Both the position numbers and the translations under genes were made by a program. From NCBI GenBank assembly GCA_965198235.1, contig OZ240248.1, positions 352,001-416,000 on the forward strand: a stretch of 64,000 nt of DNA. The letters run 5' to 3'. The DNA comes from Candidatus Poribacteria bacterium. GTDB taxonomy: Bacteria; Poribacteria; WGA-4E; WGA-3G. Within the stretch, counting starts at the first letter, position 1; every line of letters begins with the position of its first letter. Shown one piece after another: positions 13,743-50,050 of this stretch. The notes under the pieces were generated by a model. The model was not told the DNA's origin, searched no databases, and saw only the letters and a program-made list of their open reading frames with translations.

Positions 13743-13900
13743 GTGATAGACCCAAGCCTAAAGACTTGGGCTTCTGCAAATATTAAGCAGAAGCATTTGT
13801 GGAATTGAGAAGCGGACTACACGCTTCAACGGAGCAGCCGACAATCCTGTTGAACAAAACAATCGGTCTTACGACTCCTAACCCAAAGGAAGCTACCCCT
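13743..13900 (-). ncRNA. TnpB omega-RNA (reRNA) scaffold; boundaries approximate
   Basis: Overlaps the tnpB 3' end; GGAG..GTAAGAC..TGAAGC..AAGCCC core shared with the other two elements. Confidence 0.65.
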
Positions 13901-14994
13901 TCCTTAAGAATGTTCAGAGCAGCGTTCTCGTCGCGGTCGAGGTGTGTTCCACAACTTGGACACGTCCATTCCCTGTCTGAGAGCGTGAGGCTTTGATTTT
14001 TATGTCCACACACATAACAGCACTTTGTGGTCGGCGACCACCGATTGATTTTCAGCACAGACCGTATCCGCTTTTTGCTTTGGTGTTTGAGTTTCTGCAG
14101 AAACTCACCGAAGGCGAGGTCAGACACCTGTTTACCCCAAAGTTTTTTCATACCCTGAAGGTTCAAATCTTCAAAGAACAGGATGTCAAACTGACGACAG
14201 AGTTTTATCGCAAGTTTCCAGTGGTGGTCTATCCTTTGATTCGCCGTTTTCTTATGGATACGGACAACGTTCTTACGTTCTCGTTCCTGATTGTTAGAAC
14301 CTTTGACTTTATGAGAATATACCTTTTGTGCAGTTGCCAACTTTTCAGCGTTGAGTTTGTAGAACATTGGCGATATTTCTCGGTGTCCGCTACTGGTAGT
14401 CAGGAAGTCTTTGATTCCAAAGTCGAACCCTTCAGCTTGACCCGTCTTGGGTTCATATCTGACTTCACTATAATCTTCAGTGAGCGTGATATACATATCT
14501 CCAAGTGCGTCTCTTGTAACCTGAACGCGTTTGATTTTTCCCTGTATCGGGCGGTGCAGCGCGAACCGATACCAACGTCCGTTGAGTCGGATTTTATACG
14601 TCGGGTGATTTCGCTTATGTTTGTGTTTATCGGAAACTTTTTCTATCGCAATCTGTTCGCCAGAGAACGTCATGCCTCTATGTTTCTGACACTTCTTGAA
14701 CTTCGGGTGACCTTTGCCAAGGGTTTTCATTTCTTTGAAACTCTGTGCCAAGCGTTTGAGTATGTTTTGAAGACTCCACGAGTATGGGATATTCCAATGT
14801 TGGTATTTCTCAAGCTTTTTCAGCCGCGTCAAATGTTTCGACATCTTGGAATACGACAAGTCCTTACCATACCGACGGTAATATCGCCGAGACAACGCAT
14901 TGAAATGATTCCGAACAACGCCACAGATATTCAGGTCATCCTGGAGATGCTTCAAAGAGGTATCACGAAAAAGTTTATGTGTGGTGTTTCGCAT
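13783..14994 (-). CDS. tnpB: RNA-guided endonuclease TnpB
   Basis: RuvC triad GFDFG / FFEDL / DRDENAA intact; CYVC...CPSC zinc finger. Confidence 0.95.
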   Translation of the reverse strand: MRNTTHKLFRDTSLKHLQDDLNICGVVRNHFNALSRRYYRRYGKDLSYSKMSKHLTRLKKLEKYQHWNIPYSWSLQNILKRLAQSFKEMKTLGKGHPKFKKCQKHRGMTFSGEQIAIEKVSDKHKHKRNHPTYKIRLNGRWYRFALHRPIQGKIKRVQVTRDALGDMYITLTEDYSEVRYEPKTGQAEGFDFGIKDFLTTSSGHREISPMFYKLNAEKLATAQKVYSHKVKGSNNQERERKNVVRIHKKTANQRIDHHWKLAIKLCRQFDILFFEDLNLQGMKKLWGKQVSDLAFGEFLQKLKHQSKKRIRSVLKINRWSPTTKCCYVCGHKNQSLTLSDREWTCPSCGTHLDRDENAALNILKEGVASFGLGVVRPIVLFNRIVGCSVEACSPLLNSTNASA

Positions 14995-14998
14995 GGTC

Positions 14999-19714: not shown

Positions 19715-20093
19715 TTAGACCGCTACCCCAGCTCGCAAAATGTTTATCGCAGCATTTATATCTCTATCGTGAGACGTGCTACAACTTGGACAAGTCCAAT
19801 ACCTGTCCCTAAGTGTGAGGGTTTCGTTCTTATATTCGCAGACGTGGCAGACTTTCGTTGTCGCCTGCCACCGTCTCGCCTTGGCGAGTGTTTTTCCGTA
19901 TTTAGCAGATACCCATTGAAGTATCCTGACGAACTCACTGAAAGCAAGGTCGGAGATTTTTCGACCCCACAGGCGTTTCATACCCTCAAGATTCAGGGTT
20001 TCTATGGACTTGCACACCGTGCAAATCGTCTATTAGGTTGCCAATCTGTATTAGATTCGACTGGTGATATAACTCATATTTTTCCGTTTTCAT
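19715..20093 (-). pseudogene. tnpB: tnpB remnant (N-terminal stub joined out of frame to the C-terminal RuvC/Zn finger part)
   Basis: MKTEKYELYHQ... then ETLNLEGMKRLWGRKISDLAF...CHVC...CPSC...DRDINAA. Confidence 0.85.
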
Positions 20094-47517: not shown

Positions 47518-48852
47518 CTACGCCAAAAAAGTGATCCCTCCTGATGCCTCTCTGTCCTGCCAGACTGAACCCGTCGGATAGATGTGCTTCTCGACAAACT
47601 CCGGATACATCTCCAGTCCCCAACCGGGGACTGTTGGCGTAACATAGGCACCATTGCGTACCTGAATTGGGTGCAGGAAAACGTCCTCTTGTAAGAAGTT
47701 GAGGTATTCAACGACCTGTGTTTCCGAATGCGCGGCGACGCAAATTTGATCCCAAATGGCGTAATGTTGAATCATGTTACACAACCCGATGCCACCACCG
47801 TGCGGGCAGACGGGGATAGCGTATTTTGCGGCCATCAAGATGACTCCGAGCACATCGTTGACCCCTCCGAGCCGCGTCGCGTCAATCTGGCAGTACTGGA
47901 TCGCTTCATTCGTGATTAACTGTTTGAAGATGACAGGCGACGGTACCTGTTCGCCTGTAGCGACTCCAATACCGTGTTTCTCTAAGGCACGTGCGATTTT
48001 CACGAAGCCGAGCACATCGTCGCGCGCTGTCGGTTCCTCAATCCATGTCGGTTTGAACTGTGCTAACTCTTCCATATAGGCGATTGCTTCATCGACACCC
48101 CATATCTGATTTGCATCCAGCATCAGAAGTGCCTCTGTGCCGATTGCCTCCCGAATGAAGGCGAGTCGTTTCTTGTCAAAGTCCAGATCCTGTCCAACCT
48201 TCATTTTGAAGCAGTCAAGCCCGGCTGCTTTCACCTGATTCACTGTCTCAATAATCTGTGCATCTGTCAGACCGAGCCATCCTGCGGTGGAATAAGCCTT
48301 GGGTCCCTGTTGGAGGAGCGTCTGCTCACGGGCTGCGCGACTGCCCCAATGTGTGTTGAGGATCTCCTCTGCTTCATCAGGTGTCAGTGCATCGCGCAGG
48401 TACCGCCAATCAATACATTGCGCAATCTTCTCTGGTGGTAGGTCAACGAGAAGTTTCCAGAGCGGTTTATCGACCAGTTTTGCCCAAGTATCCCACATCG
48501 CGTTGACAATGCTCCCGATCGCCATCCGGTTAACGCCGTCAGCAAGCCAGCGTAACTGGTGATGGTCGACAAGAAGCCTGTGGAATGCACCGGGGTCGTC
48601 AACGAAAGTGGCCATCTCCACCCCAACAACGAGTTGTGCCAGGTCTTTAACGCCGTAGGCAATCCAGTCGTTTCCGGCACCCGCGGTGAACGCCACTGAT
48701 ATACCTTGATGTCCTGTGCTTGTTTCAAGTGTCGTTAGGACTGCAGAATAATTCGGTTTTTTATGAAAGGGATCGGAACCGAGTAGTGTATCCGATGTGG
48801 GGACGCGTAAATCAACAACATCAACTTTTACGATTTTTCCTAAGTTATTCAT
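47518..48852 (-). CDS. L-fuconate dehydratase-like enolase-superfamily enzyme
   Basis: DLRVPTS..LLGSD, YSTAGWLG, KMKVG, DANQ, EEPT, TGE, CPHGGG. Confidence 0.88.
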   Translation of the reverse strand: MNNLGKIVKVDVVDLRVPTSDTLLGSDPFHKKPNYSAVLTTLETSTGHQGISVAFTAGAGNDWIAYGVKDLAQLVVGVEMATFVDDPGAFHRLLVDHHQLRWLADGVNRMAIGSIVNAMWDTWAKLVDKPLWKLLVDLPPEKIAQCIDWRYLRDALTPDEAEEILNTHWGSRAAREQTLLQQGPKAYSTAGWLGLTDAQIIETVNQVKAAGLDCFKMKVGQDLDFDKKRLAFIREAIGTEALLMLDANQIWGVDEAIAYMEELAQFKPTWIEEPTARDDVLGFVKIARALEKHGIGVATGEQVPSPVIFKQLITNEAIQYCQIDATRLGGVNDVLGVILMAAKYAIPVCPHGGGIGLCNMIQHYAIWDQICVAAHSETQVVEYLNFLQEDVFLHPIQVRNGAYVTPTVPGWGLEMYPEFVEKHIYPTGSVWQDREASGGITFLA

Positions 48853-49237
48853 CAAAATTTTCGGTGTAGAAACTCCGTCTTTATAAAGTGGGGAGGAAAC
48901 ACCTCTCTCCTTTTTCTTGACAGAAAACGCCAAAATCGTTAGAATGCTCTGCGTCGTGCAGAAGGTTGTGAATTATGCGTACTGGACGCTATTGCTGAGT
49001 GGGTTTACGTAAAACGACAACACGATGACGCTAAACAACCCAGACGAGCTTTTTGAGTGTAATGGATGCGAGGCAGTAAAACACCCGATCCGAAAAAACG
49101 CACTCTGAAAAAATAGTGAGTTGCCTTCGGGCAAGCGGGCTGCTTAGTATCCCGTTGTGGAGTAGATGTAAGGCCTCACTTTGAGGCAAACTACGATGAA
49201 GCACAAGCCCCACCCTTTAGGGTGTGGGTGCTATGAC
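48853..49237 (+). mobile_element. ORF-less IS200/IS605 derivative carrying a promoter and omega-RNA scaffold
   Basis: Left end after TTCAT resembles the other two elements; TTGACA-N17-TAGAAT (48917-48945); right-end hairpin CCCCACCCTTTAGGGTGTGGG then TGAC. Confidence 0.85.
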
Positions 49238-49270
49238 GTTTGCTTGACTCCTTTCCTGACTGAGTATATA

Positions 49271-49482
49271 ATAACCCAAGTTGCCATCTAACAAACTGTA
49301 AATGTTTGCGTACTATTTTTTTTGACCACACGCGGAAGTTTAAGGGATACAGATGTCGCCCCGCTGGGGCTTTAACGCGTTATAGCTCGAGTTTAAAAGG
49401 TGTACCTTCAAGATTTATGAAAAGGCATCCAAAAAAGCAATGAATATAGCATCTTTTATTCCAAGGTAGCAACTTGGATTAT
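49271..49482. repeat. MITE-like element
   Basis: ATAACCCAAGTTGC / GCAACTTGGATTAT inverted ends around a GCCCCGCTGGGGC hairpin. Confidence 0.6.
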
Positions 49483-49489
49483 ATAATAG

Positions 49490-50050
49490 ATGAATATGAA
49501 AATCTATACTAAATTCGGCGATTCTGGAGAGACTGCGCTTTACGGCGGAACAAGGTTAGGGAAAGATGAACCACGCATTGAGGCGATCGGCACTGTTGAC
49601 GAACTGAACGCTTATATCGGTTATGCGCAGACGCAGGTTGACGATGCTGATCTTTCCGAGCTCATGGCGCGGGTTCAGAATCACCTCTTTGATGTCGGTG
49701 CGGATTTGGCAACGCCAGCGACACATACGAAAGCTGCCGAATTCCGCATACCGGCAGATTTCACCATAGAGATGGAGACCGCAATAGATACACTATCTGC
49801 GGAGCTTCCACCACTGACAAACTTTATTCTGCCCGGTGGCTGCACCGCTGGCGCTATTTTGCATATCGCGCGCGTGGTGTGCCGTCGAAGTGAACGGTGT
49901 GTCGTGCGTCTCGCACGCGAAGCGGAGGTCAATCCTGAGATAATCCGAAGTTTGAACAGGCTTTCGGACCTCCTGTTTGTTCTCGCTCGCACGGTAAACT
50001 TCCGTGCGCAGGCTCCAGAACCGATTTGGGAGTCGCAAGCAAACTCTTAA
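49490..50050 (+). CDS. PduO-type cob(I)alamin adenosyltransferase
   Basis: IYTKFGDSGET, GTVDELN, FILPGG, RRSER, NRLSD. Confidence 0.94.
   Translation: MNMKIYTKFGDSGETALYGGTRLGKDEPRIEAIGTVDELNAYIGYAQTQVDDADLSELMARVQNHLFDVGADLATPATHTKAAEFRIPADFTIEMETAIDTLSAELPPLTNFILPGGCTAGAILHIARVVCRRSERCVVRLAREAEVNPEIIRSLNRLSDLLFVLARTVNFRAQAPEPIWESQANS

Follow-up and report, generated by a model that had tools for sequence, protein, structure and literature searches.

How does a transposable element come to lie between the Shine-Dalgarno (SD) site and the start codon of an intact gene, and what might it do there? The question is raised by a 64,000-nucleotide stretch of Candidatus Poribacteria DNA (contig OZ240248.1, positions 352,001 to 416,000; hereafter the window), in which a 385-bp element of the IS200/IS605 type separates a gene resembling L-fuconate dehydratase from its former SD. 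The host is described as a sponge symbiont, and the region 48300-49800 of the window is represented in sponge metatranscriptome runs. We read the element as a member of a non-autonomous, protein-less IS200/IS605 lineage (TnpB-only, IS1341-like), that is, as a PATE (palindrome-associated transposable element) that retains a guide-RNA gene, and we give this explanation a probability of about three in four. Insertions between SD and ATG are strongly over-represented in the lineage, as the counts below show.

The element, its insertion site and its RNA block

Re-reading of the sequence placed the element at positions 48853 to 49237 on the plus strand, with a right terminus that reads ...GCTATGAC at 49237. 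The motif TTCAT stands directly to its left (48848-48852), and there is no target duplication. On the minus strand, the CAT of this motif is the ATG of the dehydratase-like gene (ATG at 48852), and the right flank contains the gene's former SD site; the element is wedged between the two. The longest stop-free stretch within 48853-49237 amounts to 61 amino acids, hence there is no tnpB and no open reading frame (ORF). The initial annotation had described an ORF-less IS200/IS605-type element of 385 bp with its own promoter, and the ends, a promoter scan and a tnpB-linked 3′ block all agree with that description. The promoter, TTGACA-17-TAGAAT, matches the consensus at 11 of 12 positions, the earlier coordinates having been off by one base at most, and the right flank at 49238-49257 is the same string as had been quoted. 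The remark that no SD precedes the present ATG is true of the 20 nt upstream; further up, beside its hairpin, the left end bears GGAG-type motifs on the gene's strand.

The uninterrupted site was found in related genomes. The region 48300-49800 was compared with 41 relatives, 24 of them from the same genus (Candidatus Poribacteria metagenome-assembled genomes, MAGs), and both flanks were matched in 22 of the 24. By coordinate subtraction, the flank matches lie 23-97 nt apart in 21 genomes, 438 nt apart in one (G016) and 625 nt apart here. Twelve loci, including our own, were read closely. Both anchors were located in our locus and in L054, L057 and L059; in the other eight an anchor was not located (reverse orientation or divergence). 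In all three of these relatives CAT or CAC is followed directly by the right-flank sequence with an AAAGGAG-type SD, and 37 bp separate the divergent start codons of the dehydratase gene and an adenosyltransferase gene. By eye, the element is also absent from G016 and G019. The prediction that removing the element restores an SD-ATG start site was thus confirmed in the orthologous loci that had been proposed as its check: relatives that lack the element have the junction. Our own genome carries two insertions at the site, the 385-bp element and a 206-bp insert. Because the element is absent from the same-genus genomes examined, the dehydratase copy looks like a recent insertion.

The kinship of the element is clearest at its 3′ end. 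In 44 of 45 full-length loci of other Poribacteria (Candidatus Poribacteria MAGs and a few entries named 'uncultured' Poribacteria or bacterium, all encoding close relatives of a resident TnpB), the 3′ end of tnpB has a sequence matching the last ~105 nt of the element, and so do intact tnpB genes of its own genome at their 3′ ends. The aligned stretch includes the tnpB stop codon and terminates at the element boundary. It forms the 3′ part of a structured block of ~190 nt (49052-49237), whose 5′ half (49052-49140, ~88 nt), with a TTGCC-TTCG-GGCAA hairpin (UUCG) at 49121-49134, is restricted to ORF-less copies. An alignment of 22 ORF-less copies, taken as MAFFT produced it and not fitted to structure, gave a consensus fold of 42 pairs in seven helices with 98.0% of cells paired; 21 of the 42 pairs have changed on both sides (84 cells). 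None of 500 shuffles equalled this fold, and slid controls paired in 26-48% of cells. G-U predominates at several positions, where the opposite strand would have C-A, and the fold was therefore assigned to the plus strand. Within the explanation given above, the block is a putative omega-RNA-type gene. Rfam 15 returned no gathering-level match in the window, nothing relevant for the element at E values up to 10 and nothing in three full-length relatives; since no curated model matches, the label 'omega RNA' rests on position, homology and covariation. A candidate remnant of the TnpB zinc ribbon at the 5′ end of the block, a CxxC-like frame seen by eye, was rejected: the frame is broken, and nhmmer aligns nothing upstream of model position 88 to full-length elements. 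We treat this 5′ end as heavily diverged and of uncertain origin.

The remaining parts of the element are conserved to different degrees. The subterminal palindrome is clear at the right end, where the DNA fold has a z score of -3.2 and helix 7 shows compensatory changes in five of ten pairs. At the left end it is clear in relatives and degenerate in the dehydratase copy, whose left end folds as DNA at -6.9 kcal/mol (z -0.85), no better than shuffles. This left end is terminator-like on the plus strand (48890-48910); on the minus strand it reads as an A-run, an SD-like GGAG, a hairpin, 10 nt and ATG. In 18 of 19 ORF-less copies, element position 60-68 carries a promoter with a 17-nt spacer. 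Between copies the leader can barely be aligned, whereas the block is conserved. By eye, the leader contains an ...AAGGTTG... core in common with the conserved 5′ untranslated region (UTR) of full-length tnpB elements, and its closing helix appears to covary between copies, again in a sequence comparison made by eye. In the full-length elements themselves (L017, L020, L026 and the tnpB loci of the same genome), a 5′ UTR of ~90 nt is strongly conserved between promoter and start codon; it reads GTTGGCAGACA ... CGCAAGGTTACG ... GGGGTTAAAG ..., is apparently structured, and has no Rfam match at E values up to 0.1.

Searched alone, the 5′ half of the block finds 24 places in 16 of 65 same-genus genomes, one to four per genome. 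Besides the element itself, three copies in our genome have its last ~190 nt at 75-85% identity; the complete block was counted in four copies there. The ORF-less copies are 72-93% identical to each other and measure 379-401 bp, with one of 484 bp. The order of parts is the same in every sufficiently complete copy: ..TCAT, a left end with a TTTA-loop palindrome, CTCC and a T-run, the promoter, a leader of ~100 nt, the block, and the right-end palindrome. A ..TCAT flank precedes 18 of the 19 ORF-less relatives with a mapped left end, and TTCAT, named in the initial annotation as the adjacent motif, proved to be family-wide in ORF-less and most full-length elements. We conclude from these comparisons that the ORF-less elements form an old, independent, low-copy lineage that keeps a promoter-driven gene of the omega-RNA type.

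Individual copies and other derivatives vary further. Copy B (G000:C1:3440807-3441150) has four tandem 10-nt repeats (TTCGGAAAC[C/T]) in place of the left-end palindrome; its promoter and RNA block are intact. The 484-bp copy (L133, in G041) has short tandem repeats inserted inside the RNA block. Other protein-less IS605 derivatives lie at G000:C1 858014, 3784033, 1410168 and 1963026. Among them is a second protein-less family, with a promoter and a leader of its own and a right end that finishes in ..TATCAC. Another is a minimal element of ~120 nt, which consists of a left-end hairpin fused straight to the last ~85 nt of a right end. A replication-strand bias of the copies was considered and dropped: the cumulative GC skew of the chromosome, with its minimum at 0.37 Mb and its maximum at 4.05 Mb, does not trace a clean V and gave no basis for assigning replichores.

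Insertion at start codons and a candidate ribosome-binding site

Insertion before start codons was counted for the elements whose left ends could be mapped with a hidden Markov model (HMM), 19 of 23 ORF-less and 32 of 42 full-length elements; the 4 and 10 unmapped rows were excluded. The CAT of the flank opens an antisense ORF of at least 99 codons in 14 of the 19 ORF-less elements versus 7 of the 32 full-length ones. With an SD-like motif added in the right flank at the expected distance, the counts are 13/19 and 3/32. Taking all NTCAT sites of the element's own genome as the null, 17.9% open such an ORF and 4.5% have both ORF and SD. A more generous null, restricted to sites outside crude gene calls, gave 26-31% (binomial p 1e-4 to 9e-4), and a Fisher test of docking in ORF-less versus full-length elements gave p 2e-5. 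The host ORFs look like genuine genes with genuine starts: their N-termini include signal and lipoprotein-like peptides, and in 9 of 12 the Pfam domains are placed as for true N-termini. They include Lon, a Zn-dependent dehydrogenase (Zn-ADH), an SPFH protein and a solute-binding protein. Copy C of the same genome, which stands outside the count because the HMM missed its left end, lies by eye at the start of a 526-amino acid RNase E/G gene.

Every insertion at an SD|ATG site runs antisense to its host gene. ATGAA reads TTCAT on the opposite strand, which makes start codons before Lys or Asn codons targets. The motif alone cannot account for the excess among ORF-less elements, since the full-length elements use the same one. 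Only one pair of insertions (L120 in G064 and L124 in G006) occupies orthologous sites, with flanks 84.6% identical, before a 2-hydroxyacid dehydrogenase gene. The two belong to different ORF-less subtypes, with different leaders and central RNA hairpins, which points to independent hits on one site or to replacement.

The left end of these elements may explain how the host genes bear the insertion. Antisense folds of the 19 copies showed, on the host strand, an A-run, GGAG(G), 0-3 nt, a palindrome of ~41 nt, 8-11 nt and then the ATG. By eye, the palindrome forms in the minimum free energy (MFE) fold of 16 of the 19, and the folded stem would bring SD and AUG ~9-13 nt apart. CTCC, the antisense of GGAG, follows the left-end palindrome in 18/19 ORF-less and 11/32 full-length elements. 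It is found in each of the 16 SD|ATG insertions, which make up 16 of the 29 elements with CTCC and 0 of the 22 without (Fisher p 1e-5). The 3′ end of the 16S rRNA has a canonical anti-SD. The insertion at the RNase E/G gene (L139/L148, G000:C1 ~632.7-633.1 kb) is common to the sister species G012 (L149) and G004 (L150), where deletions within the element have eroded it but spared its left end. What remains in G012 is the left end with the promoter and, at the right end, the last ~19 nt. In G004 ~85 nt of the left end remain and the native SD region is gone, and the gene is intact (526 amino acids).

These correlations suggest that the bottom strand of the left end could provide a substitute ribosome-binding site, keeping the host gene translatable; we would put this somewhat short of an even chance. 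The GGAG just 5′ of the left-end hairpin would act as the SD, and the folded hairpin would set the working distance to the AUG. Host genes that are intact, together with an antisense SD in the left end, argue that the genes are usable with the element in place. A broader and more tentative proposal is that the ORF-less elements of Poribacteria are a start-codon-docking lineage with a portable ribosome-binding site, replacing the native SDs of intact genes, housekeeping ones included, with Lon, RNase E/G and the fuconate dehydratase as examples. The element would persist there and place a promoter-driven guide RNA antisense to the gene's old 5′ UTR.

Movement, transcripts and rival explanations

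Candidates for the proteins that such an element would need are encoded in the genome, which has 35 matches to PF07282 (TnpB-type) and 6 to Y1_Tnp. One TnpB of 400 amino acids, at G000:C1:2163465-2164673, is homologous to ISDra2 TnpB over its full length (8bf8, E 1.2e-40) and retains the motifs GVDFG, ETLN and DRDVNAA. Its clade is present in 60 of 65 congeners, including all 16 with ORF-less copies. The same genome has intact TnpBs with a related 3′ RNA block, as had been supposed. At 118.7-120.4 kb lies an IS605 that carries a TnpA (about 119.8-120.2 kb); the hairpins at its ends, with a TTTA loop, are similar in style to those of the element. The window also holds a 404-amino acid full-length TnpB frame of a different clade with a long C-terminal tail (13783-14997, minus strand) and a 104-amino acid TnpB-type fragment (19715-20029, minus strand).

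By analogy with published IS605 biology, a Y1 TnpA encoded elsewhere would move the element as single-stranded DNA, and the promoter would make a transcript of leader, omega RNA and guide. Loaded with this RNA, a TnpB from another locus would cut a TTCAT-plus-guide site that exists only after excision; recombination after the cut would put the element back. When the genome was searched with TCAT followed by the first 14 bases of the guide, other sites with up to 3 mismatches did not exceed the control level, which leaves the restored allele as the sole cognate target. Given the published guide mechanism, this upholds the claim that the guide matches only that allele. The dehydratase copy itself may have lost the ability to excise: its left-end palindrome is degenerate, and excision of this copy is doubtful.

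Four runs were examined, all as contigs, among them a sponge metatranscriptome (X1) and a run of unrecorded library type (X2); two others (X5 and X6) are without cover over parts of the stretch. In X1 a contig 100% identical to 48565-49234 has a mean depth of 290, compared with 5 for 48307-48556 and 80 for 49208-49800, depth figures that cannot rank expression. They hint weakly, and without strand, that something within 48565-49234 is abundant as RNA. In X2 the matching contigs are flat at a depth of 58-65 and hold the filled site at 100% identity. One further X2 contig (depth 43) joins 48844 to 49241 with 11 different letters between them; because these letters differ, we take it for the uninterrupted site of another strain or species and not for an excision product. 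An empty-site junction of the same strain, which the initial annotation had proposed to look for, was absent from the contigs of the four runs, contigs being prone to drop rare variants.

These data bear on the proposal that the element is an excision-controlled switch. It would hold the dehydratase off until scarless excision by TnpA restored the SD-ATG and turned fucose-acid catabolism on, TnpB and the element's RNA then removing or reconverting the excisants. Excision would rebuild the textbook start site that relatives have, genes for TnpA and TnpB are present, and the guide is specific for the restored allele. The proposal was nevertheless not borne out. The sole joining contig is foreign and the lack of a same-strain one counts, weakly, in the same direction; the left-end palindrome of this copy has degenerated; and host genes across the family are intact, Lon and RNase E/G included, with one insertion common to three species. 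This pattern fits tolerated insertions better than off-switches, and we hold a switch to be the least probable of the three alternatives weighed here. A regulator that does not depend on excision or on TnpB is also conceivable: the RNA would extend past the right end, reach the host gene's old 5′ UTR and promoter and control the gene, as a domesticated cis-antisense regulator, by antisense pairing or transcriptional collision. The invariable antisense orientation and the conserved, strong outward promoter speak for it, as do the lack of any plus-strand terminator-like site called between 49237 and 49600 and an element-bearing RNA contig far deeper than the gene body. Yet the orientation is automatic given that TTCAT is the antisense of ATGAA, the RNA contigs are unstranded, and the conserved fold matches a tnpB-linked right-end RNA that needs no role for the host gene. 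We consider such a regulator unlikely.

Likelihood is lower still for an inert relic, which would be a tnpB element reduced by internal deletion and now dead, whose RNA has no function and whose copies resemble each other through recent common descent only. The element has no tnpB and its left-end hairpin has decayed, sister copies can lose the RNA block, and copy B has a scrambled left end. Recent descent, however, sits poorly with copies that are 72-93% identical and keep 98% of pairs through 84 double-sided changes. The promoter with its 17-nt spacer is kept in 18 of 19 copies, the block is conserved while the leader can barely be aligned, and the lineage is spread over 16 of 65 species.

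The reading of the element as a protein-less lineage with a guide-RNA gene and a docking left end has its own difficulties, and the following observations weigh against it. The copies are related, so the tests of enrichment and of CTCC overstate their independence, and CTCC may be kept for a role on the plus strand (terminator or promoter context). In L119, the closest relative of the dehydratase copy (93% identity over the block's 5′ half), the left-end palindrome has 8 contiguous inner pairs. The dehydratase copy has 4, and the standard left-end hairpin is missing from its MFE fold; this weakens both the mobility of this copy and its split-SD geometry. No antisense promoter able to drive the host gene is conserved inside the element in the 19 ORF-less copies. 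For the 5′ half of the block, full-length elements offer no clear counterpart (nhmmer matches begin at model position 88-93), so that a resident TnpB may or may not accept the RNA. The absence of a matching Rfam family tells in the same direction, although Rfam may lack this clade. At the RNase E/G gene the RNA block is deleted in G012 and G004 and hence is not always kept. The run contigs have no strand, start or end, and the deep X1 contig also spans 288 nt of the dehydratase.

The main interest of the locus lies, in our judgement, in the family-wide docking at start codons and in the testable idea of a transposon-borne ribosome-binding site. The dehydratase locus offers a clean case from nature, and its empty site is mapped. 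The lineage suggests that a guide-RNA cassette with its own promoter can persist independently, and that the scaffold evolves by compensatory change once free of the coding constraint of tnpB, which helps to define the minimal RNA for this TnpB clade. The SD|ATG bias and the antisense SD together suggest how a transposon could occupy a gene's most sensitive bases without killing the gene. If this were true, a selfish guide-RNA element would rewire the translation initiation, and possibly the regulation, of scattered host genes.

Neighbouring features and known systems

The coordinates of the element's parts and of the neighbouring features are collected below.

Features of the element and its surroundings (window positions; strand as read)
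Feature	Position	Strand	Remarks
L-fuconate dehydratase / ENOSF1-family gene, intact	47518..48852	-	444 amino acids; full-length phmmer matches
TTCAT transposon-adjacent motif (TAM)	48848..48852	+	also flanks ORF-less relatives and most full-length elements
Left end	48853..48916	+	10-nt lead-in, imperfect palindrome ~48863-48903, CTCC 48907-48910, T-run 48911-48915
Sigma-70-type promoter TTGACA-17-TAGAAT	48917..48945	+	points away from dehydratase; predicted start ~48952
Leader, ~100 nt	48946..49051	+	related to 5′ UTR of full-length tnpB elements
Omega-RNA-type structured block (putative)	49052..49237	+	3′ ~105 nt common with tnpB elements; right-end palindrome 49207-49229
Would-be guide (3′ flank)	49238..49257	+	includes antisense of dehydratase's former SD CTCCTTTCCT, 49248-49257
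Native TTGACT-17-TATAAT promoter of divergent adenosyltransferase gene	49244..49272	+	11/12; overlaps old SD on the other strand
Second, unrelated 206-bp insertion	49274..49479	.	terminal inverted repeats (A[C/T]CCAAGTTGC), 9-bp duplication
PduO-type cob(I)yrinic acid a,c-diamide adenosyltransferase	49490..50050	+	TIGR00636, E 7e-57, 191.8 bits (cut-off 108.45)

In a phmmer search against proteins of known structure, the dehydratase aligned over its full length to 4a35 (E 8e-119) and to 1yey and 2hxt (~1e-107), the 1yey match (E 1.3e-107) pairing residues 5-434 with 5-436. These structures are L-fuconate dehydratases and human ENOSF1. Since no NCBIfam equivalog scored above its cut-off, L-fuconate is given here as the probable substrate.

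In relatives the TTGACT-17-TATAAT promoter adjoins the adenosyltransferase gene, and here it is cut off by the 206-bp insertion, which is flanked by the 9-bp duplication TATATAATA at 49265-49273 and 49480-49488. No further copy of this insertion was found in the same genome at E 1e-5; partial matches occur in congeners. At the same -10 box, G016 (L145, G016:C3:262250-262950) holds a different insert of ~390 nt with the duplication ..GGTATAAT, and on that account the box looks like a recurrent target for duplication-making elements. In L054, L057 and L059 the adenosyltransferase promoter overlaps the dehydratase SD on the opposite strand. The -10 box sits only a few nucleotides from the ATGs, which suggests a leaderless or near-leaderless adenosyltransferase mRNA in these relatives.

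Protein-less elements with guide RNAs have precedents. Meers et al. 2023 (PMC10055086) state that PATEs 'often encode' omega RNAs needing TnpB from other elements, and note omega-RNA-encoding PATEs in Geobacillus stearothermophilus. TTCAT and TTTAT are published TAMs, ISGst5 and ISGst2 using TTCAT and TTTAT, respectively, as adjacent motif. A stand-alone guide RNA made by a protein-less element, one of the possibilities raised for this locus, is therefore a concept already in print (PMC10055086). Like the PATEs in the passages of that work available to us, the Poribacteria element has IS605-type ends, no ORF, a presumed dependence on TnpA in trans and a putative omega RNA that would need TnpB in trans. 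Unlike them, it belongs to a conserved lineage of ~385 bp with its own promoter, a leader and enrichment at SD|ATG sites, and the 5′ half of its RNA has drifted from tnpB coding; this comparison is with text passages, and the published anatomy may overlap.

With the TnpB-omega RNA system of ISDra2 and other IS605-type elements (the right-end element RNA, or reRNA), the element shares a 3′-terminal RNA that overlaps the right end and the region of the tnpB 3′ terminus and would use the adjacent flank as guide, and the resident TnpBs are clear homologues of ISDra2 TnpB. It differs in having no tnpB in cis, a scaffold with a different 5′ half, and no Rfam model. IStrons (Zedaveinyte et al., 10.1101/2023.11.20.567912) combine an IS605 or IS607 element with a group I intron, and PATE versions exist. 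As far as the portion of that work seen by us goes, they too place an IS605-type element in a gene's expression path without destroying the gene; the Poribacteria element, in contrast, is antisense to its host gene, and tolerance would act at translation initiation and not at splicing. An Rfam search of the element found no group I intron, only a chance 12-bit match to U6atac.

The literature searches that were run turned up general papers on TnpB and TldR, and none that connects PATEs with start codons or TnpB with Poribacteria. If docking by a portable ribosome-binding site were confirmed, it would link TAM choice, transposon-end architecture and host translation signals, a combination of which these searches found no description. 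The closest parallel in translation is the split ribosome-binding site bridged by a hairpin in phage T4 genes 38 and 25. There, as proposed here, a stem-loop brings a distant SD and AUG to working distance; in the Poribacteria genes, by contrast, both the SD and the hairpin would come from the end of a transposon.

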